DNA of 64,000 nt from Octopus vulgaris (Eukaryota), in NCBI GenBank assembly GCA_951406725.2, contig OX597839.1, positions 12,896,001-12,960,000 of the forward strand, given 5' to 3'. The translations under genes and the position numbers were made by a program. Positions 3,111 through 57,539 of the stretch are shown here, piece after piece (position 1 is the first letter of the stretch; the number at the start of each line of letters is the position of its first letter). The notes beneath the pieces were generated by a model. It ran no database searches and had not been told where the DNA came from. It saw only the letters and a list, made by a program, of their open reading frames with translations.

Positions 3111-3522
3111 ACAGGATCAATAAAATAAGTACCAATTGAACACTGTGGTTGATTTAATCGACTTCGTCCTTTCCCCAAAACTGATGACCTTATGCCAAAA
3201 TTTGAAACCAATATAAAGAATAAATTAATTTGATAAATAATATCAGTTCAATTTTACTTCTGTAAAACAAAAACTTATGAATCTGTTGTTCAACACTGAA
3301 AAATGACTATGACAAAGACTTCACCTTTCAACTAAGAAAATGTATTTTGTATGTAGTTTATTTTAAGATATTTTTGTTTCTTCTCACTCTCCATAACTAC
3401 ATTTCCTGACCACTCCTTTTCCACCTCCAACTGTGTAATATATTTACACATAAATGTATACATGTATGTTTGTGGAATGAACTCATAATGGATATTTTAT
3501 TTATCTTTCATTTCCATTCCAG

Positions 3523-3896
3523 CAAAGACAAAACTTTACCAGCCAACACTTATAAAACCAATTCAAAAACTGTAACGTCCAGCAGTAACTCTGATGCATT
3601 ACTCAGTAGTGAAGATGTAAAAGGAAACAATAATGCAGTACCCAAGCCTACAGGAGAAGGTAATGATAAAATAAGAGAAATACCCAAATCTAATGAAACT
3701 AACGCACTACCTCCACTTTGTAACAATTTCAGCAAGAATACTTGCATTGTGCTTCCTGTTAGAGGAGCTAGTAGCTCTTATGCTCAAGAAGCAGCATGCC
3801 TTCCTATTGAGGAATCTAAAACAAAATCCCTTTCCATTAATTCCCCAAACAACCAGCTAAACTCTGCAAATGTACCCCAAATGTTTCCACAAGGCT
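3523..3896 (+). CDS. Death-domain adaptor (IMD/RIP-like) paralogue 1, internal coding exon (low-complexity N-terminal region)
   Basis: Acceptor tttcatttccattccAG at 3521-3522 and donor GTAAG at 3897. Open frame KDKTLPANTYK...QMFPQG lies within ORF 3470-3931. Phase 2 start, phase 1 end. Homologous to 22788-23167. Confidence 0.85.
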
Positions 3897-4400
3897 GTAA
3901 GCACCATTCTTTTTTATATTTTCTTAGATAACCTCACCATCATTACTTTATTATCATTGCTTAATAATCATTACTCATTATGTTGCCATCACTACTTTCC
4001 CATCATTTCTTTATTATCATTACTTTCTCATTAAAAAAAAAAAATTTTATGTGCCCTTTTCAACCCTAGCCAGGTTCATGGGCCCGTTTTCCTAGTTTCT
4101 GTGGTGTATGTGTTCCCCCTAGCTGGATGGGATGCCAGTCCATTGCAGCCTTACTCAAGAAGCAGGAAGAAAGAGTGAGAGAAAGTTGGGGTAAAAGAGA
4201 ACAACAGGGGTCACTACCAGCCCTGCAGGAGCCTTGCATCCTTTTGTTTATTGAAGACCAGCAGTCACTCATGCATACCAGCCTCCCCTCTCCATGTCAG
4301 CGGAATTTTAACTCAGAACATGAAGACAGACAAAATACTGCTAAGCATTTTGCCCAACATGCTAATGGTTCTGTCAGCTCACCTCCTTAAAACTGTTTTA

Positions 4401-4699: not shown

Positions 4700-5174
4700 T
4701 ATAATAATAATAATTATAATGATAATAGTAATAAAGATGATGATGATTTCAAATTTTGGCTCAAGGCCAGCATTTTAGGTGGAAGGGATGAATTGATTAC
4801 ATTGACCATAGTGTTTAACTGGTACTTACTTCATCAACTCTGAAAGGATGAAAGGCAAAGTCATAATCAGCACACACACACAGGGGACAATTACCCCCTC
4901 TCCAATATATTAGGAAGTTTTAAATGAACATCTGTTGTCCTTAGGGGTAATTTTCGTTGGGGTGGGGGTGTAAATGTCTTACACTCAATATATACGACAG
5001 GCTTCTTTAAGTTTCCATCTATCAAATCCACTCAGTTGTGGTTTGCCTAAGGATATATTAGAAGACACTTGGTCCAAGATGTCACTTTGAGAAGCAAACT
5101 TTTTAACACACATGTATCTATGTATTATATTCTCAAAAATTTATGATCTTGATGCTATGTTATAAATTTTATAG

Positions 5175-5312
5175 TTATTCCTGCAACTATTAGAAATGGA
5201 AAGAATGTTGCAGTTGGGGGTGACTCTAATGTTACAAATAGGAAAACCGCAGAACCTGAGAAGAAAAAATGTGAGACTGATAAAGATGAAGTGAAATTCA
5301 GCAAGTATCTCA
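5175..5312 (+). CDS. Death-domain adaptor paralogue 1, coding exon with RHIM-like motif
   Basis: ttttatAG acceptor and GTAAGT donor; 138 nt, phase 1-1. Translates FIPATIRNGKNVAVGGDSNVTNRKTAEPEKKKCETDKDEVKFSKYL in frame with both neighbouring exons. Confidence 0.82.
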
Positions 5313-5487
5313 GTAAGTAAAAGTAGTTTCCATTTGTTTACTCTTTTTACTCTTTTACTTGTTTCAGTCATTTGATTGCAGATCAAAGCAAGATGAAATG
5401 TTTTGCTCAAGAATACATCAAAACACTTGATCCAGGAATGAAACCCACAATCTGGCAATTGTGAGTGGGAAACCCTATCACTGGACC

Positions 5488-8044: not shown

Positions 8045-8119
8045 AGTCTAATACAAAACTGACTCAGAAAAGCCTCAACGAAATATCCAAATACTTAGGG
8101 AATAAATGGAAGTCTGTTG
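8045..8119 (+). CDS. Death-domain adaptor paralogue 1, exon encoding Death domain helices 1-2
   Basis: tttttgcAG acceptor and GTAAGT donor; 75 nt. KSNTKLTQKSLNEISKYLGNKWKSV(G) fits the Death-fold L..I...LG..W...GR.L pattern. Confidence 0.88.
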
Positions 8120-9534: not shown

Positions 9535-9740
9535 GTCGAAATTTAGACATTCAAGATGTTTTCCTGGGTAATATTCAATCTGACAACCCAGGGAATACTG
9601 AAGAACAGTGTTTTCAAATGTTGAAGAAATGGTCGGAAATATCTGAGCCAGGGATGTGTACAACAGGCAAATTAGCTAAGGCTCTCATTGATGCTGAGTG
9701 TTATGGTGTGATTCCATATTTACCATTAGATGAGGAGTGA
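9535..9740 (+). CDS. Death-domain adaptor paralogue 1, terminal coding exon (rest of Death domain)
   Basis: tttttattttcAG acceptor. GRNLDIQDVFLGNIQSDNPGNTEEQCFQMLKKWSEISEPGMCTTGKLAKALIDAECYGVIPYLPLDEE*. EQ..QML..W and T...L..AL are Death domain signatures. AATAAA signals at about 10004-10020. Confidence 0.9.
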
Positions 9741-11564: not shown

Positions 11565-13048
11565 TGCCTGTTGAGTGGATTGGAGGGTTAATGTGAAAGG
11601 AAGTATATGACTTAATAGAGTAATCCTATTGACTCATATGTCCAGTTTCCAGGTTTCTCTGACCTATATATATTTTCTCCTGGATGGGATGGGACGGTGG
11701 TCCATCACAGGATTTCTCATTATTGCCTGTTGAGTGAATTGGAGGGTTAATGTGAAAGGAAGTATGTGACTTAATAGAGTAATCCTATTGACTCATATGG
11801 CCAGTTTCCAGGTTTCTCTGACCTATATATATTTTCTCCTGGATGGGATTGGACGGTGGTCCATCACAGGATTTCTCATTATTGCCTGTTGATTGGAATT
11901 GGAGGGTTAATGTGAAAGGAAGTATATGACTTAATAGAGTAATCCTATTGACTCATATGGCCAGTTTCCAGGTTTCTCTGTCCCATATATATATTTTCTC
12001 CTGGATGGGATGGGACGGTGGTCCATCACAGGATTTCTCATTATTGCCTGTTGAGTGGATTGGAGGGTTAATGTGAAAGGAAGTATGTGACTTAATAGAG
12101 TAATCCTATTGACTCATATGGCCAGTTTCCAGGTTTCTCTGACCTATATATATTTTCTCCTGGATGGGATGGGACGGTGGTCCATCACAGGATTTCTCAT
12201 TATTGCCTGTTGAGTGGATTGGAGGGTTAATGTGAAAGGAAGTATATGACTTAATAGAGTAATCCTATTGACTCATATGGCCAGTTTCCAGGTTTCTCTG
12301 CTATATATATTTTCTCCTGGATGGGTGGGACGGTGGTCCATCAAATTTCTCATTATTGCCTGTGAGTGGATTGGAGGGTTAATGTGAAAGGAAGTATTGA
12401 CTTAATAGAGTAATCCTATTGACTCATATGGCCAGTTTCCAGGTTTATCTGACCTATATATATTTTCTCCTGGATGGGATGGGACGGTGGTCCATCACGA
12501 ATTTCTCATTATTGCCAGCTGAGTGGAATTGGAGGGTTAATGTGAAAGGAAGTATATGACTTAATAGAGTAATCCTATTGACTCATATGGCCAGTTTCCA
12601 GGTTTCTCTGTCCCATATATATATTTTCTCCTGGATGGGTTGGGACGGTGGTCCATCATGAATTTCTCATTATTGCCAGCTGAGTGGAATTGGAGGGTTA
12701 ATGTGAAAGGAAGTATATGACTTAATAGAGTAATCCTATTGACTCATATGGCCAGTTTCCAGGTTTCTCTGACCTTTATATATTTTCTCCTGGATGGGAT
12801 GGGGCGGTGGTCCATCACAGGATTTCTCATTATTGCCTGTTGAGTAGATTGGAGGGTTAATGTGAAAGGAAGTATATGACTTAATAGAGTAATCCTATTG
12901 ACTAGTATGGCCAGTTTCCAGGTTTATCTGACCTATATATATTTTCTCCTGGATGGGATGGGATGGTGGTACATCGCAGGATTTCTCATTATTGCCTGCT
13001 GAGTGGATTGGAGGGTTAATGTGAAAGGAAGTATATGACTTAATAGAG
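11565..13048 (+). repeat. Minisatellite, about 160-bp unit, about 9 full copies
   Basis: ggagggttaatgtgaaaggaagt recurs at about 11582, 11741, 11901, 12062, 12221, 12373, 12531, 12692, 12851 and 13010. Confidence 0.95.
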
Positions 13049-22787: not shown

Positions 22788-23167
22788 CAAAGACGAAACT
22801 TTACCAGCCAATTCAAAAACTGTAATGTCCAGTAGTAACTCTGATACATTACTCAGTAGTGAAGATGTAAAAGGGAACAATAATGTAGTACCCAAGCCTA
22901 CAGAAGAAGGCAACGATAAAATAAGAGAAATACCCAAATCTAATGAAGCTAGTCGCATTGAAACTGACGCGCTACCTGTACCTTGTAACAATTCCAGCAA
23001 GAATACTTGCAATGAGCTTTCCAATAGAGGAGCTTGTAGTGCTAATGTTCAAGAAGTAACAGACATTGATACTGATATGAAGAACGTTTCCGTTAATTCC
23101 CCAAACGACTCTTTTAATACCATTCAACCTTCAATTAAAAATACATCCCAAATATTTCATCAAGGCT
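22788..23167 (+). CDS. Death-domain adaptor paralogue 2, coding exon 2 (contains IETD/ALPV)
   Basis: Same acceptor and donor as 3523-3896; 380 nt, within ORF 22735-23262. KDETLPANSK...SRIETDALPVPC...QIFHQG. Confidence 0.85.
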
Positions 23168-23468
23168 GTAAGCACCATTCTTTTTATATTTTCTTAGATA
23201 ACTTCACCATCATTACTTTGCTATCATTACTTTGTTGTTGCTTCCCTATCATCATTACTTAATAATCATTACTCATTATGTTGTCATCACTACTTTTCCA
23301 TCATTTCTTTATTATCATTACTTTGTAATTATTACCATTTTTACTTTGTTAGTAATACTTTGGCCATTTTTGCTAAACTGCTAAGTTTGGGGACATCAGT
23401 TGTCAGGTGATGGTGGCGGGACAAACATAAGCACAACCATATACATACATACATACATTTATATATAT

Positions 23469-26400
23469 GAGATCGTCGAGATGCTTGAATGGAGATGTGT
23501 TGATATATGTTGCATCCAAGAGGTAAGGTGGAGAGGAGGCTCTGCTAGGTTCCTCACAGGCAAAGAACACAGGTACAAGATTTTCTGGGCAGGGAACACT
23601 GACAGGGTTGGGGGTGTGGGTATACTTCTCACTGAAAAATGGGTAGATAAGGTAATTGAGGTAATTAGAGTATGTGACAGAATACTTAAGATTAGATTAG
23701 TGCTTCATCATGGATTAGCAACCATTATATCGGCCTATGCCCCTCAGCTGGGGCTACCTGATGGACAGAAAGACCGATTCTATGACACCCTACTGCAGAC
23801 TACCTCGTTGACGAACGACAGAGACCTCCTTGTAGCTGGTGACTTCAATGGGCATGCTGGACAACATGCTGAGGGCTTCCATGGTGTACATGGAGGCTAT
23901 GGTTATGGTTCCCGCAACAAGGAGGGAACCAGGTTGCTGGAGTTCTGTGGTGCAAATGATCTTATGGTTTGCAACACAAACTTCAGGAAACCTACCAGCC
24001 ACCTAGTCACCTACCGATCGGGCCGACATTCTAGCCAAATTGACTACATCCTTGCCAGGAAAAGGGAAAGATGGTTGCTTATAAATGCCAAAACCTTCCC
24101 GGACAAAGAATGTACCCCACAACATAGACTGGTAGTTAGTGACTTTAGGATCAGGACTAAGAGGACAACCAGAAGACGACCAACATAGAGAAGAAGGATC
24201 TGGAAGCTTAAAGATCCTGTGAATGGACAGAGATTTAGGGACATATTACTTGAAGCCTTTGACGAAGTAGAAGGGGATATAGCTTCACATGAGGTAGAAG
24301 ACAACTGGAAGTTTCTATGAGACAACCTGCTGAGAGCCACTGACCAGATCTGTGGTTGGTGCAAAGTCCCCTCACGACCCAAAATAACGTGGTGGTAGAA
24401 CAATGCTGTAGACAGAGCTATTAGAGAAAAGAGACAGGCTTTGAAGGACTGGAAGAATGGTGGTAGCAGGGAATTGTATCAGACTGCCAAAAAAGAAGCT
24501 AGGAGACAGGTCTATTTAGCCAGAGGGGAAGCAGATAAGAAAAAATTTGCCAATGTTCTGCTCCATGAGGACAAAAGACAAAGTATTTCGTGTTGCAAGA
24601 CAGTGTGTGAGAGAGAATTGTGATGAGGTAGGAGAGAAATGTGTTCGCATGGATGATGGTTCACTTGTGCTAAATGAGGATGCAAAGAGAGAGGTTTGGA
24701 GACGCCACTATGAAAGGTTGCTGAATAAAGAAAATGAATGGGATAAAGAGAGTCTGCCGAATGTCGACCCAACAGAGGGATCAGCTATCGGAGTTGACAG
24801 TTCCTTGGTAGTTAAGGCAATTAGAAGCATGAAGACAGGGAAAGCCCCAGGCTCATCAGGAATTACTGCAGAGATGCTCAAAATATCTGGTAGTGTCGGC
24901 TATAGCCTTGTCACCCGTATAGTTAACCAGGTGATACACAAAGGAGTCATACCCAATGACTGGTGTAGCAGCATAATAGTCAACTGCTACAAAGGTAAAG
25001 GTGACGCCCTAGATACAAATAATTACAGAAGTATCAAGCTGTTGGATCAGGTAATGAAAGTTACGGAGAGGGTCATAGCTCAACTAATTAGAGAGAGAGT
25101 TAGTTTAGATGAGATGCAGTTTGGTTTTGTGCCAGGGAAAAGTACCACTGATGCTATATTCCTGGTAAGACAGCTGCAGGAGAAATACCTAGCCAAAGAT
25201 AAGCCTCTGTACCTGGCTTTTGTTGACATGGAGAAAGCCTTCGACAGGGTCCCCCGATCCCTTATCTGGTGGTCAATGAGGAAACTAGGGATAGATGAAT
25301 GGTTAGTGAGAGCTATGCAAGCCACGTACAGGGATGCTGCTAGTAAGGTGAGGCTTGGCAACGAGTACAGTGAAGAATTCCGGGTAGAGGTAGGGGTCCA
25401 CCAAGGTTCAGTCCTCAGCCCCCTCCTATTTATCATAGTCCTCCAGGCAATAACGGAGGAATTCAAGACAGGATGCCCCTGGAAGCTCCTCTATGCTGAT
25501 GACCTTGCTCTAATTGCAGAGTCACTATCCACAACTAGAGGAGAAGTTTCAGGTGTGGAAGCAAGGATTAGAATTGAAGGGCCTTAGAGTCAACCTAGCT
25601 AAAACCAAAGTCCTAATAAGGAGGAAAGTAGACAAATCACAAACACCTTCAGGTAGATGGCCTTGCTCAATCTGTAGATAAGGCGTAGGTAGAAACCCTA
25701 TAAGATGCACCAAGTGTAAGCTATGGACACATAAGAGGTGCAGCAATGTCAAAGGAAGGCTAACTAGGAAGATAGTTTTTGTATGTGGCAGATGCTCAGG
25801 AGCAATAAACACTGAAAATGCGCAGAGATCAACTTCCGCCACATTTCAGGGAGAAAAACTAGAAATAGTTGATAGTTTCCGTTACCTAGGTGACCAAGTC
25901 AGTAGCGGGTGTGCTGAAAGTGTAACTGCTAGAGTAAGAATAGCCTGGGCAAAGTTCAGAGAGCTCTTACCTCTGCTGGTGACAAAAGTCCTCTCGCTCA
26001 GAATAAAAGGCAGACTGTATGACGCATGTGTACGAACAGCCATGTTACATGGCAGTGATACATCGGCCGTGACTGCTGCGGATATGCGTAAGCTCGCAAG
26101 AAATGAAGCCAGTATGCCCCGATGGATGTGTAATGTCAGTGTTCATACTCGACAGAGTGTAAGTACCTTCAGAGAAAAGTTGGACCTAAGAAGCATCAGT
26201 TGTGGTGTGCAAGAGAGACGTTTGCACTGGTATGGTCATGTGGGAAAAAAGAATGAAGATAGTTGTGTGAAAAAGTGCCACACCCTAGCGGTTGAGGGAA
26301 CCTGTGGAAGAGGGAGACCCAGGAAAACCTGGGACGAGATGGTGAAGCATGACCTTCGAAATTTAGGTCTCACCGAGGAAATGACTAGAGACCGAGACCT

Positions 26401-26750
26401 TTAGAACTATGCTGTGCGTGAGAAGACACAGCAAGACAAGTGAGACCATAACCCGTGGCCTCTACCTGGGATGTAGCCAGTCCACTTATGCATACCTTTT
26501 CTTCTTGGGACACAAAACTCTACTTGTGAAGACCTGTTGAGGCAAGTGAAAATCAAAATCAATATTGAAATCGATCAACATCAATGGAAATTGTAGCTGT
26601 GATACCAGTGCCGGTGGTACATAAAAGAACCATCCGAACATGGCCGTTGCCAGCGCTGCCCGACTGGCCTCCGTGCCGGTGGCACGTAAAAAGCACCCAC
26701 TACACTCACGGAGTGGTTGGCGTTAGGAAGGGCATCCAGCTGTAGAAACT
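23469..26750 (+). mobile_element. Near full-length RTE-clade LINE (APE endonuclease, reverse transcriptase, Cys-rich insert), inactivated
   Basis: ORF 23400-24188 has DICCIQEVRW, AGDFNGH, SQIDYIL and TPQHRLV. ORF 24547-25587 has QFGF, FVDMEKAFD, GVHQGSVLSP and LYADD. Premature stops and frameshifts present. Confidence 0.93.
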
Positions 26751-30650: not shown

Positions 30651-30776
30651 CAAATGTTAACATTAATAATGTAGTCTGCGATACCTATGTTGCCTCAAAT
30701 AATAATAATACCGCAGAACCTGAGAAGAAAAAATGTGAGGCTGATAAAGATGAAGTGAATTTCAGCAGGTATCTCA
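30651..30776 (+). CDS. Death-domain adaptor paralogue 2, coding exon 3
   Basis: tttattccAG acceptor and GTAAGT donor; 126 nt. SNVNINNVVCDTYVASNNNNTAEPEKKKCEADKDEVNFSRYL; 3' half homologous to 5175-5312. Confidence 0.8.
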
Positions 30777-36441: not shown

Positions 36442-36516
36442 AGTCTAATACAAAACTGACTCAGAAACGCCTCAACAAAATAGCCGTATACCTAGGGAAT
36501 AAATGGAAGTCTGTTG
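36442..36516 (+). CDS. Death-domain adaptor paralogue 2, coding exon 4 (Death domain start)
   Basis: AG/GT flanks; 75 nt. KSNTKLTQKRLNKIAVYLGNKWKSV(G). Confidence 0.88.
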
Positions 36517-37798: not shown

Positions 37799-38004
37799 GT
37801 CGAAATTTAGACATTCAAGATGTTTTCCTGGGTAATATTCAATCTGACAACCCAGGGAATACTGAAGAACAGTGTTTTCAAATGTTGAAGAAATGGTTGG
37901 AAATATCTGAGACAGGGATGTGTACAACAGGCAAATTAGCTAAGGCTCTCATTGATGCTGAGTGTTATGGTGCGATTCCACATTTACCATTAGATGAGGA
38001 GTGA
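37799..38004 (+). CDS. Death-domain adaptor paralogue 2, terminal coding exon
   Basis: ttttcAG acceptor. GRNLDIQDVFLGNIQSDNPGNTEEQCFQMLKKWLEISETGMCTTGKLAKALIDAECYGAIPHLPLDEE*. Confidence 0.9.
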
Positions 38005-42819: not shown

Positions 42820-44640
42820 GAGGAATTTTGCCCCACCTAGCTAGGATTGGGCACCAAATTGGGATGTGAAGCTGCTGCCCACGCTACCTGAGGCTTCACC
42901 AACTTGCCCTCCTTATCACCCAAGGTCACCCTCAAACTTGACCTCAGGAATGCATTCAACTCCGTCAGCCACGATGCTGTCCTCAGCTCAGTAAGAGAGG
43001 AAGTCACACAATTCTACTGCTTGGCATGGCAAGCTTATTGGGAGCCCTCCTACCTCTCTTTCGGTAACCAAATCATCATCTCTGCCTCAGGGGGCCAACA
43101 GGGTGACCCATTCAGGCCTGCTCTGTTCCCACTGGGCATTGATGACATCACTAAGATGGGGTCAAGCTAGACCTCAATATCTTGTATCTCGATGATGCTT
43201 GTTTGGGGGGACCTCCTGACAGGGTCTTGCCATTGCAAACAAGATGATTGAGGAGCTTGGTTGTCAGGGTCCCCAAGCTCTGGATCCTCAACCACCTGGC
43301 TTCTCAACATCAACAAACTATAGGCCTATTTGTAGAGTCCTTCCCTTCCATTGCAGTTCCTCTCTCATCTGTGTGGTGCTCCTTAGGAGCCCCAATTACT
43401 AACTTTGTCTTTGAGTCCATTTTCCAGTCAAAGGTGGCTGCCCTTGAGCAATTGGTGAAGAATATTGAAGCAGTCAAGCCCTGTCAAGTTTTCTTCATAC
43501 TTAGAAATTACATTTTGACTCCTAAGCTTCTGTATTTGCTTAGAGTAAGCTCTTCTCACTAATATCTCATCTTGCCTTCATGGCTTCGACAACCTAATCT
43601 TTGAGAGACTTGAATGCTTGGTCAATGTCAGGCTCTCTCCAACATGCCATGATCAGGCTGCATTGTCCAAGTAATTTGGGTGTCTTGGTCTTCGTAAGTG
43701 TTCATCCTTCCCTCTCTCCTGCTTCCTTTCCTCCACTTATGCCTGTTCCATCCTGGTGAGCAACATCTCCTCTCCAACATGGACCAGTTCCAACAGGGAG
43801 TTGGATGAAGCTCTCCAACACAGGAATGTATTGGGCTTCGACTCACAGTTTTCAAGGTGCTGCTTACTGTCTGCTTGCACCAAAATACTCAAGGGACTAA
43901 CATTGGTGGCCTACTCAGCTTGGATGAACTTTGTGTTTCCATTGCCCTCAGAGTGGGAGCTGACGTCTGCATGAGTTTCAGTTATTGCTGTGTCAAGCTC
44001 CACAGGCCTCCATGGTTTTTCTTACCACCTGAATGCTGGTCACTTCAAGCGTCATACAGAATTAAACCTTACACTCAAGAGGAGTTTGGCCTGGGAAAAC
44101 ATCCCCTCCATCTGGGTTGTCCACATGTGATGGGAAAAGGCCTGACAGCCTCACCCTCTGCCCCTCATCGAGAGGCAGATGCTTTGTTTTGTAACATCAC
44201 AGTTAGTGACACCTTTGCTTCTTCTCACATCCTAGATGCTGTGGCCAGGGCAAGATCCACAACTTCTGTGGCTGAGTGGAACAAAATCCCAAAGTACTAC
44301 GATCTGTCAGCCAACTACATTTTCCATCGTGTGGCGTTTGAGACTTTTGGTGTGGTCGGACCACTGACTGCGAGATTCCTGTCTTCACTGGCAGATCTCC
44401 AAGCAGAGGTAACTGGTGAAGCTCTTGAGGCTGCTTGGTTGTTCCAGCGCATCAGCCTCGCCATCACCCGCGGCAATGCTGCAAGTGTGCTGATGTGTTT
44501 CAATAGCCATTAAAGAAATTTTCCCAGCACCCCAAAATTTTTAACCTAAGGGGTTGAATTGTTTTTGTTTTTTGTGTTGTTGTTTTTCTTCTTCTCACTC
44601 TTATGTATATATTTAAGTTTAATATAATAAATGGTTTACA
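42820..44640 (+). mobile_element. Degenerate CRE-like non-LTR retrotransposon (RT plus restriction-like endonuclease)
   Basis: RT motifs KLDLRNAFNSV, SASGGQQGDP and YLDD. RLE C-terminus VSDTFA..AE.NK..KY..F..VAFETFG..G...FQRISLAITRGNA. Confidence 0.8.
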
Positions 44641-54773: not shown

Positions 54774-56711
54774 TCAAGGGTAATAGCCTAACGATTTCTC
54801 AAAGTTCATGTTATCATGTCGATTGTAGTTTGACTGTATGTGTTGTCTCTCAATTTCAATATTTTGAAACATAGAAGCAATTTCTGCCTCTTTACTGCCA
54901 ATGTTTAGATGTGGGTTACTAGCAGCATACTGCTTATAATTATGACTATACTCCTGCCTTCGCATCGCATCTTCATTTGCATGTGAATGTCTGTCTTGTT
55001 CAACAGACATATCTGGTTTGTATTGCCTGTCCCTTACAGCTGGGTTGTAGTTTGGGTTCAACTGGTTAGGGTAGTGGTTTGTCTGGTATTGCCTGTAGAT
55101 GTCATTCTGTGACATTGTAGGTATTTGACTTTTGTAATAATCATTAGCTGTAGCCATTGACATAGGTCTTGGTTCACCAGCTGACAATGAAGAACGAAGG
55201 TGATTTCTGCTGCCTTCACCAGACTTTGAATCAAAGGCATAGGCATTTGAATAACGGTTGTTAGGCGTTCTATGGTCATGACTGCTATGTCTATATTGCA
55301 CAACTTCCTTATCCCAGTTGGTCTCATTGGCAGAAAGTTTGGCACTGTTATCATATTCCTGATGAGATGGTTTAGGTGAAATCGGTCTTTTAGGTAATTC
55401 AAATGCTGTTGGCAACACTTTTACTCCAGCTATTTTGTGGGGCGGTACTTTTGCAATGGGCTTGTTGCGTGCTGCTTCAAATGACTGACCAGTATCGCTT
55501 CTGTCAAACTGCTGCCGGCTTTCAAGGTTTGAGAGTGAAAACATAGGCCCAGAATGATTCAATGGCTCTGAAGTAAATGAATTTGGTTGATACTGTTGTG
55601 AGTGTGGCATTTTTGGAGAGTATGGCTCACTAGCATTTGTTTTCTGTGTCATTGCGTGTAATTCCCCTGCCTGTCTCTGTTGTTCATCATAATTTGGATA
55701 TTGTCCATAGCCTCGAATATTTTCGCTCATTGGACGACCATACTTCGAAGGAAACCTTTGGCGGTTTTCTTGATTATGAGGATAATCAGCTTGGTCTTCT
55801 CGATTGGCAGTAGGTCTTTCATAGTAAGAATGTCCTCTAGAGAGTTGCACTTGTCTGTTTTGGTGGGGTGAACCAGGGAATGGTGGTTGCTGATTATAAG
55901 GCTGTGGTTGCCCATACGGATGTTGGCTGCGGACATCAGGAAACCTGTTATTATCATCTAAGGCCCAGTCATCATGCACTTGGTGCCGGAAGTACTCATC
56001 ACGCAGTTGGTAGCGTTCATTAGGGTGAGATGGCGGGTATTGTCCAGATGCCATGGCGTTACTGCCAACAGCTTGATTTTCTGGAAGAGGGTGGAAGTTC
56101 ATTTCATTTGTTCTGGGGTCTTTGGGGTAGGCATTTTGTGAAGCAGCACCAAAGTCACCAATGTATTCTTTTTGCATGGATTTTTGTTGCATGAAATTAA
56201 AACTCTCCACAATTTTAGTAGCATCTGTCGTTGACAAAGAAAGAAAAACATGGCAGTCCAAAGCTTTTAAACCTGCCTGACGCCTTAATAAACAGACAAC
56301 AATAGGCTGATGAGAGATTTTCAGTAGATAATTGTTTTTCTTTTCCAGAGTAGAAAAGAGTTTGTCTGGAGACCTAACAATACGTTTCTCATCAAGAGGC
56401 ATAAAAGCAAACTGGGTCTTCCGTGTATTGTTCTTGTTTATCGTAAACTGAACTGCTTCCATGTAATTGATCATATTAAAATCATAATGAGTATTTTTTA
56501 AGAAGCTTCCACTACCAGATCCATTTGAAGTTAATATGTCTAATCCTTTGTAGGTGATTTGCATGTAGACTTCGGCTGGTGATTTGGTGACTTTCTTGTG
56601 GAAGTTGAAGTAATGCTCTTTCAAAGGTTTCTGTATTGATCCCAATCCGGTGGTTCCTTTCGACAAAGTAGAGCAGCCCAGGTAATGTAGGGTGTAGGTT
56701 AGATCCGACAT
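54774..56711 (-). CDS. Uncharacterised 645-aa protein: N-terminal PTB/PH-like domain and long Q/N/Y/P-rich disordered tail
   Basis: Uninterrupted 1938-nt ORF. YTLHYLG, VYMQIT..GLDI and LDCHVF.....DA..IV..F resemble PTB domains. Splice acceptor (ttttattttccAG) 6 nt upstream of the ATG, so a single coding exon starting at 56717. Confidence 0.9.
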   Translation of the reverse strand: MSDLTYTLHYLGCSTLSKGTTGLGSIQKPLKEHYFNFHKKVTKSPAEVYMQITYKGLDILTSNGSGSGSFLKNTHYDFNMINYMEAVQFTINKNNTRKTQFAFMPLDEKRIVRSPDKLFSTLEKKNNYLLKISHQPIVVCLLRRQAGLKALDCHVFLSLSTTDATKIVESFNFMQQKSMQKEYIGDFGAASQNAYPKDPRTNEMNFHPLPENQAVGSNAMASGQYPPSHPNERYQLRDEYFRHQVHDDWALDDNNRFPDVRSQHPYGQPQPYNQQPPFPGSPHQNRQVQLSRGHSYYERPTANREDQADYPHNQENRQRFPSKYGRPMSENIRGYGQYPNYDEQQRQAGELHAMTQKTNASEPYSPKMPHSQQYQPNSFTSEPLNHSGPMFSLSNLESRQQFDRSDTGQSFEAARNKPIAKVPPHKIAGVKVLPTAFELPKRPISPKPSHQEYDNSAKLSANETNWDKEVVQYRHSSHDHRTPNNRYSNAYAFDSKSGEGSRNHLRSSLSAGEPRPMSMATANDYYKSQIPTMSQNDIYRQYQTNHYPNQLNPNYNPAVRDRQYKPDMSVEQDRHSHANEDAMRRQEYSHNYKQYAASNPHLNIGSKEAEIASMFQNIEIERQHIQSNYNRHDNMNFEKSLGYYP

Positions 56712-57539
56712 TGTGCTCTGGAAAATAAAAATAAAACTGAATTAGTGACATCCATTTCTGAATATAACGAAGAAAAAAAAATAAACCATCATCAACAACA
56801 CAGGCACTGAAGATGATTACAATGGTGATGGCATTATTATGAGGATGATGACGATGATAGTGACCATGATGATGGTATCGATGATAATGATGACAACAAC
56901 TACGAGGGTGACGATAATAATGGCGTTGGGGTACTCAGTTTGATAATTTTTAAAGTACAAATGTCAAACTTTTATACGTGTGTGCATGTTTTATGTATGT
57001 GCATGTCTTGTGTGTGCATGTGGAGTGGATATTTTGCCAACTTGATAATTATTGCAGCTGTTATTGTTATTGTTGCTGTTGTTCATGTTGATATTATGTA
57101 GCCCCAGCTCAGCAGACTAATAATACCTAAGTGTTATTCAACAAGCTACTCCTAAACTAAGTATTTGTTAAGAGAAGTAGGGAATATTTTCCTCATATTT
57201 AATATCTACTATTAAATATCCTCATATTAATAACTGTTATTGGTATCTACTATTAATAAGGCAGTGAGCTGGCAGAATCATTAGCCCGATGGGTGAAATG
57301 CTTATCAGCATTTCATCTGTCTTTACATTCTGAGTTCAATTTTTGCCGGGGTCAACCTTGCCTTTCATCATTCCAGGGTCAGTAAAATAAGTACCTGTTG
57401 AGTACTGGGGTCAATGTAATCAACTAGCCCCCTTTCCCTGAACATGCTGCCTTGTGCTGAAATTTGAAATCTATTTTCTTATTTCTTTACCGACCACAAG
57501 GGGCTGCACACAGAGGGGACAAACAAGGACAGACAAACG

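Follow-up and report, generated by a model that had tools for sequence, protein, structure and literature searches.

Two tandem death-domain genes of Octopus vulgaris, here called copy 1 and copy 2, differ strongly in one short segment upstream of the death domain, and in copy 1 this segment resembles the amyloid-forming RHIM. Does the segment of copy 2 represent another working amyloid cassette with partners of its own, or a RHIM that has been lost, and what would either imply for the roles of the two genes? The window considered here is the whole stretch of 64,000 nucleotides that was analyzed (G000:C26:12896001-12960000, with 0 N inside).

The gene array and its death domain

The sequence-only reading treated copy 1 and copy 2 as a pair of paralogues. 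Both are indeed present, but the pair belongs to a tandem array of six copies (G1-G6) that reaches upstream of the window, copy 1 being G5 and copy 2 being G6: the RHIM exon has six genome matches, all at 12.79-12.94 Mb of C26, and the same holds for exon 2. Each gene has five coding exons, namely, a 26-nt start exon, the low-complexity exon 2, the RHIM exon, and two death-domain exons. The first coding exon of copy 1 lies 3.2 kb before the window start; the other features are as follows.

3523..3659, plus strand: short form of copy 1 exon 2, with a GT donor at its end; same donor in P0002; joined contigs X1, X2
3660..3896, plus strand: in-frame open extension that makes the long form of copy 1 exon 2; the joined contigs skip it, and the P0001 model (G3) includes it
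3695..3715, plus strand: ruined second caspase site ETN-ALPP of copy 1 (15-nt deletion and D>N relative to copy 2)
5175..5312, plus strand: copy 1 RHIM exon, with an acceptor 9 nt upstream of the ancestral one
5186..5239, plus strand: type B1 RHIM-like motif TIRNGKNVAVGGDSNVTN, core VAVG at 5207-5218, conserved in P0002
8045..8119, plus strand: copy 1 death-domain exon 1; joints 5312>8045 and 8118>9534 in X1, X2, X7, not in X12
9535..9740, plus strand: copy 1 death-domain exon 2 with the stop codon; Pfam Death match on P0001
19392..19417, plus strand: copy 2 (G6) first coding exon, MDESREMHR; same peptide in P0002, homologous MDGSSGLHR in P0116
22788..23167, plus strand: copy 2 exon 2, long form, predicted; no internal GT donor
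22957..22980, plus strand: predicted caspase site and IAP-binding motif IETD/ALPV of copy 2, homologous to type A KTD/AVP
23385..26401, plus strand: pieces of a LINE-type retroelement (endonuclease, reverse transcriptase) in copy 2 intron 2; open frames with Pfam Exo_endo_phos and RVT_1 matches
30651..30776, plus strand: copy 2 homologue of the RHIM exon, with the type C segment NVNINNVVCDTYVASNNNN; VVCD at 30671-30682 replaces the Gly core
36442..36516, plus strand: copy 2 death-domain exon 1 (predicted gene model)
37799..38004, plus strand: copy 2 death-domain exon 2 with the stop codon (predicted gene model)

Copy 1 uses the upstream acceptor because the AG of the ancestral one, at 5182-5183, reads TG. 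The GT donor at the end of its exon 2 is absent from copy 2, which has GC there, and from type A. All five exons of copy 2 are open and its splice sites canonical; the gene is known from this one genome alone, and its model is predicted from sequence. Its RHIM-homologous exon has a second in-frame AG before 30675, use of which could remove most of the type C segment.

The gene model agrees with database proteins: type A (301-302 aa) with P0116 from O. bimaculoides (302 aa) and P0123 from O. sinensis, and type B with P0002 from O. sinensis and P0001 (labelled O. vulgaris), which corresponds to G3, a near-identical relative of copy 1, except for the first exon. NCBI names these proteins RIPK1-like. 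The N-terminus MEDLLAL... of the NCBI model P0001 was rejected in favor of MDESREMHR, found once per array unit and in P0002, with a homologue in P0116.

Upstream of the window lies G1 (G000:C26:12769619-12811205; L019, L009, L010), a complete gene of type A and the orthologue of P0116 and P0123. It has two caspase/IBM-like sites and the best of the RHIM-like motif classes, and its last death-domain exon is divergent. G2 (G000:C26:12826324-12836423) is a chimera of a type A 5' part and a type B last exon; a 1-nt deletion in exon 2 breaks its frame, the RHIM Asn is changed to Lys, and it is either a pseudogene or a sequence error (the NCBI model P0005 spans its tail). G4 is without its last exon, a 100-N assembly gap (G000:C26:12891213-12891312) following directly after its first death-domain exon. 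The region also holds a tandem array of ~159-bp units between copy 1 and copy 2 (11565-13048), seen after G2 and G3 as well, a 414-bp array at C26:12846633-12856972 and 12893055-12895127, and a second degraded retroelement at 42892-44510 (RVT_1 fragment, E 4e-5). On the minus strand, a 655-codon open frame at 54777-56741 has no Pfam match at E 0.001; its start, with a Y-L-G motif, is reminiscent of a PTB-like domain.

The proteins match Pfam Death above the cut-off; among PDB structures, RIPK1 matches the death domain best (E 7.6e-7), ahead of FADD (E 0.0066), and insect IMD is among the 114 hits of the protein search. Three RIPK queries found no kinase match in the 224 kb examined, and the O. 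bimaculoides RefSeq protein P0116 begins at the same first exon, consistent with a kinase-less protein. As RIPK1 is defined by a kinase, a RHIM tetrad, and a death domain (PMC11326134), type A is not RIPK1, having no kinase; a C-terminal death domain without a kinase is what the IMD adaptor has. In a midpoint-rooted death-domain tree of 27 chosen sequences over 99 columns, the octopod genes fall among other cephalopod death domains (UFBoot 69-73) instead of joining arthropod IMD, and IMD and RIPK1 themselves are not resolved; ESM Atlas returned generic death-domain clusters only. Type A is IMD-like by anatomy, its function being predicted by analogy.

Another 46 exons related to this death domain were seen on C29, C31, C6, C7, C8, C10, and C30 (L034-L058), many of which match ankyrin/RING-like octopus proteins ("MIB2-like") whose C-terminus is a death domain; this set is a large cephalopod expansion of candidate death-domain ubiquitin ligases. 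Kinase-less relatives include P0007 and P0118 (Logan proteins) and P0006 (Argonauta), P0118 having three D/A-x-P sites and a near-canonical VQFG RHIM, and P0006, an HYVG variant.

The divergent segment and the RHIM-like motif classes

Both segments lie where the sequence-only reading had placed them: 5186-5233 of copy 1 translates to TIRNGKNVAVGGDSNV, and the copy 2 exon from 30651 encodes S-NVNINNVVCDTYVASNNNN, with Ser as a split codon and the frame running from 30653. The distance of about 30 aa to the death domain is a fair estimate, the core Gly being 26-27 aa before the F-S-K-Y-L lead-in and ~41 aa ahead of the region matched by Pfam Death (residues 208-282 of P0001). The surroundings are as near-identical as had been described (246/250 in the upstream intron, 64/67 in the rest of the exon, 57/60 in the downstream intron). 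Against these flanks (367/377, 97%), the motif has 35/56 identical nucleotides (62.5%, with 9 gap positions; Fisher p 9e-14). In 20-nt windows, the drop in identity (14, 11, 14 of 20) is confined to 5186-5251, and the remaining 21 full windows across 4886-5371 have 18-20 of 20 identical positions.

The statement that the two segments barely align was, however, too strong. The type C segment is collinear with its counterparts and falls 3 nt short of B1 in length; its identity is 62.5% with copy 1 and 69.6% with type A, and A and B1 share 62.9%. Its alignment score exceeds nucleotide shuffles (p ~0.001), but not codon shuffles (p 0.09-0.10), and thus its homology rests partly on position. Insertion from elsewhere was rejected, as no donor was found in 224 kb and the genome search, which skips common words, gave only three matches; no homologue of the segment was found in the databases searched. 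One codon alignment pairs C-D-T-Y-V of class C with G-D-S-N-V of B1, and P0004 from O. bimaculoides starts with M-G-D-S-S-I at the corresponding place, which suggests that the B-type core is old and that class C derives from it. P0004 itself is perhaps a truncated model, or else a third form that has no RHIM.

Collection of this exon from the paralogues, as the earlier reading had proposed, yielded three discrete motif classes: A, with NINIGMSNV(F/I)IGNANVTNV or a close variant (G1, G2, G4, P0123, P0116); B1, with (T/N)I(R/G)NGKNVAVGG(D/E)SNVTN (G3, G5, P0002); and C, the copy 2 segment given above (G6 only). The core of the canonical RHIM is the tetrad (V/I)-Q-(V/I/L/C)-G, and that of the cryptic RHIM is VxxG (PMC13506858). 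The canonical tetrad is absent in every copy, the corresponding letters being VAVG in copy 1, VVCD in copy 2, and VFIG, VIIG, or LSIG in type A. Copy 1 fits the cryptic form with VAVG; copy 2 does not, its segment having no Gly in either alignment and scoring at shuffle level. The Asn-x-hydrophobic strand at Gly+3 is present in type A, the Asn is replaced in copy 2, and in copy 1 an extra Gly shifts the downstream Asn by one residue; the copy 1 motif is an atypical cryptic RHIM.

The Pfam RHIM family (PF12721) matched none of the four sequences of one test and none of five named octopod proteins, type A included. As this family proved insensitive, with only one of four RIPK controls above the cut-off, two below, and one without a match (lungfish RIPK1 scored 12.4 bits, under the cut-off), we built our own profile of 19 columns from nine non-octopod segments out of the 114 hits, hand-anchored at a Gly; in leave-one-out scoring, six of the nine reach ~20 or more and three fail (-17.5, -0.7, 2.6). 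With p values taken against shuffles of the non-death-domain part of each protein, the scores are 15-20 bits for type A (p about 0.001), 13.0 bits for O. sinensis B1 (p 0.001), 5.8 ungapped (p 0.019-0.056) and 12.9 with one-residue shifts (p 0.002-0.012) for copy 1, and 1.5 (p 0.50) or, with gaps, 4.5 (p 0.40, the best window being off the motif) for copy 2.

The RHIM-like nature of the copy 1 motif is supported by its VxxG core, its profile p values of 0.002-0.056, and the conservation among homologues, VAVG being kept in O. sinensis P0002. The claim that copy 2 carries a different working amyloid cassette is not supported, as its segment is a positional homologue without the Gly and the Asn, at p 0.50 and 0.40, with no donor and no database homologue. 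Mutation of the conserved Gly blocks fibril formation in both RHIM and HET-s (Kajava et al., PMC4262963). Judged by its letters, the copy 2 segment is likely a dead RHIM rather than a swapped cassette, and it likely no longer joins a RHIM amyloid. A complex prediction for four copies of the first 32 residues of this exon scored 0.02 and carries no weight either way. Genome-wide, no upstream RHIM partner was found by the Pfam RHIM search or with the type A exon as a query, which returned only its three array copies; the one Pfam match, L059 (20.4 bits, E 2), lies in a 16-aa open frame and was taken as chance.

The predicted caspase/IAP module, copy 1 splicing, and the history of the array

Type A proteins have two predicted caspase sites, DETD/AVPL at residue 14 (DEID/AVPL in O. 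bimaculoides) and KTD/AVP near residue 92, across three Octopus species (read in G1, G4, P0123, and P0116). They resemble the cut sites LEKD/A of insect and LETD/A of dipteran IMD (PMC6626034), cleavage of which exposes an IAP-binding motif in insects (PMC9496462). The pattern [TI]DA[VLMA]P, written after the sites had been seen, has 0 occurrences in 113 other proteins (40,278 aa). The complete type A arrangement of a predicted site, a RHIM-like motif, and a death domain is conserved in the three species.

The first site is lost from all type B and C genes through a 6-nt deletion. The second is retained in copy 2 as IETD/ALPV and changed to ETN-ALPP in copy 1, so that the predicted N-terminal site with its IAP-binding motif occurs in type A and copy 2 and is absent from copy 1. 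Moreover, the GT donor at 3660 splices the ruined site out of copy 1: in contigs from two studies (X1 and X2), 3659 is followed directly by 5175 (GT..AG). For the later copy 1 introns, joints occur in X1, X2, and X7 and are missing from X12; X1, X2, and X7 are presumed to be RNA from these GT..AG joints, which X12 lacks, and among the listed runs matching 3500-3900 none is on record as RNA. The long form is covered by an X1 contig over 3665-3882 at depth 20 vs 490.9 for the joined form, depth being a weak measure. The joined product has 193 aa and no D/A-x-P site.

The reciprocity of modules that the sequence-only reading had noted (copy 1 with the motif and without the site, copy 2 with the site and an altered motif) is thus stronger than claimed, as the spliced copy 1 transcript skips the caspase site entirely. 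Of the subfunctionalized or activator/decoy pair proposed from it, the complementary modules stand; a simple two-gene split of functions does not, since intact type A genes with both modules sit upstream. The genome holds DED proteins (three matches) and BIR proteins (26 matches); a tandem cluster of BIR-domain (IAP) genes lies at G000:C2:40.77-41.03 Mb, and its products are candidates for binding the exposed motifs.

Between copy 1 and copy 2, synonymous differences amount to 5.5/10.7 in the motif, where the counts are small and alignment-dependent, and 11.5/75 in exon 2, compared with 1/68 in the rest of the exon plus the death domain and 10/619 in four intron flanks (Fisher p 1e-4 and 2e-10). 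The synonymous divergence of the motif is about that of the split between types A and B (0.17-0.45 in most segments). Its high value there, next to one close to zero in the flanks, points to old differences retained amid homogenized surroundings. Identity along the gene alternates high, low, high, low, high; one crossover could not produce this. The simplest reading is repeated gene conversion of the introns and the death domain, sparing two functional segments that selection presumably kept apart. A recent adaptive burst as the sole cause is not favored, since the motif has diverged at synonymous sites no less than at non-synonymous ones (0.52 vs 0.34). Indel lengths are multiples of three in 7/9 cases in exons and 2/13 in introns, and the two frame-breaking exon indels (11 and 4 nt) lie close together and sum to 15.

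The copy 2 tail is closest to that of O. sinensis B (UFBoot 97), a gene with the B1 motif, and at the 11 residues differing in the tail O. sinensis B matches copy 2 six times and copy 1 three times. Hence an allelic origin of B1 and C is possible, as is an uncollapsed haplotype in part of the array. G2 and G4 look chimeric, combining parts of both types, A and B, an expected product of unequal crossing-over. The first death-domain exon (8045-8119 in copy 1, and its homologues) is homogenized even across types A and B (0/15 synonymous differences between G1 and G5), and G3 and G5 differ there by six non-synonymous and one synonymous changes.

Interpretation and comparison with known systems

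The reading we prefer, at a probability of about 0.55, is that these are kinase-less, IMD/RIPK1-like death-domain genes with a complete type A ancestor, the later copies being adaptors or decoys with complementary module losses. The same island of divergence could be taken as a sign that copy 2 has an alternative amyloid cassette that works with partners of its own, A, B1, and C then being separate address codes: the classes are discrete and about equidistant (63-70%), the island coincides with the motif and outlived homogenization of both flanks, and the type C segment is still rich in N, V, and I. Yet this segment has no Gly, its conserved Asn is replaced, its score is at shuffle level, and it aligns best as a derivative (C-D-T-Y-V) of the B-type G-D-S-N-V, which recurs as G-D-S-S-I after the start Met of P0004; besides, class C was seen only once, and retention of a RHIM-dead state explains the island equally well. 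We therefore consider separate codes unlikely. Slightly less probable again is the bolder version, in which several incompatible amyloid address codes (A, B1, C), each with its own receptor, were protected from gene conversion by selection and recombined with the caspase/IAP module via unequal crossing-over and a new splice donor; if true, it would give octopuses a combinatorial set of IMD switches.

As improbable as separate codes, in our estimate, is copy 2 being a decaying duplicate with no distinct role, its motif having eroded under relaxed selection. Neutral decay would not place 37% divergence in 20 codons between 97% flanks, and the five open exons with canonical splice sites, the intact caspase site, and the frame-keeping indels (frequent in exons, rare in introns) also argue against it, even if LINE pieces inside the 7.5 kb intron, the lack of homologues for copy 2 in the databases searched, and the broken frame of the neighboring G2 would suit it. 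To an account by which one type B locus had long carried copy 1 and copy 2 as balanced alleles, made tandem by unequal crossing-over or by the assembler, with the array partly composed of uncollapsed haplotypes, we likewise assign a small probability. It draws on the presence of only two genes among the hits in two other Octopus species, the grouping of the copy 2 tail with O. sinensis B (despite the B1 motif of that gene), the 98-100% identity of G3 and G5 in 11/12 segments (90.7% in the first death-domain exon), the 100-N gap that cuts G4, and run X1, which combines the copy 1 motif exon with G3-like death-domain letters (unphased). On the other hand, the sequence from copy 1 to copy 2 is gap-free, and their long intron blocks are 95-96% identical, below the ~98% of G3 and G5; in any case, such a history would leave the motif states as they are.

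Under the preferred reading of complementary module losses, type A would behave as Drosophila IMD does: its RHIM would seed it into amyloid, its death domain would recruit FADD and caspase-8, and cutting at DETD/A (residue 14) would expose AVPL, so that the protein would bind an IAP and signal to NF-kB. For both copies in the window, a role as partial decoy or rerouted adaptor is likely. Copy 1 could enter or cap the fibril and hold FADD while being unable to recruit an IAP, so that the signal would be damped or diverted, as by a brake of the Pirk type or a switch towards death. Access to copy 2 would be by its death domain alone; it would be cut at IETD/A and bind IAPs outside the fibril, forming a RHIM-independent branch or an IAP sink; human RIPK1 without its RHIM still activates NF-kB (PMC11326134).

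The closest parallel is Drosophila and other insect IMD, which, like type A, is kinase-less and has an N-terminal caspase site (in type A, a predicted one) followed by an A-x-P IAP-binding motif (PMC6626034), a cryptic RHIM without Gln (PMC9496462, PMC13506858; in type A, a RHIM-like motif), and a C-terminal death domain, at a similar length (240-280 aa vs 301-302 aa of type A). The octopus system differs in its mollusc host, the two sites of type A, and the tandem paralogues each without one module; the death-domain tree does not group the two, and a PGRP-type partner is known only from the insect side. With vertebrate and spiralian RIPK1 the octopus genes share a RHIM shortly before the death domain and the best PDB match, but they have no kinase domain, no tetrad in any copy, and an IBM-like motif following the site. 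Among negative regulators in Drosophila, Pirk/Rudra, PGRP-LF, and rPGRP-LC, which keep a cRHIM without signaling or have no RHIM, damp IMD signaling (PMC9496462). The candidate octopus regulators, unlike these, are paralogues of the adaptor itself and retain the death domain. Fungal HET-s-related amyloid motifs fall into discrete classes, as the octopus motifs do. Viral RHIM proteins (M45, VZV ORF20) offer a likeness in decoy co-assembly, which is reported for them and proposed for the octopus genes. In contrast to both, the octopus motifs are in host-encoded paralogues, and class C is without the Gly turn conserved in the viral and fungal motifs.

An IMD-like cDNA was reportedly described in Mytilus in 2014. 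A statement of 2023 has it that the Imd adaptor was not found in molluscs (PMC9835746), and the accessible part of a report on the O. vulgaris hemocyte transcriptome lists three PGRPs and does not contain the term IMD (PMC4199593). Among the top-listed literature, which covered few subscription journals, there was no description of a cephalopod IMD/RIPK1-like RHIM, and the accessible parts of PMC8995041 and PMC9334734 contained nothing relevant; the supplementary mollusc alignments of PMC11326134 may bear on novelty.

By sequence, type A has all three hallmarks of IMD in three Octopus species under the label "RIPK1-like." The array provides natural single-module knock-outs, an amyloid motif without an IAP site and an IAP site without an amyloid motif, which make it testable whether amyloid assembly is separable from caspase/IAP licensing, and it also allows testing whether paralogue decoys tune this pathway beyond insects.
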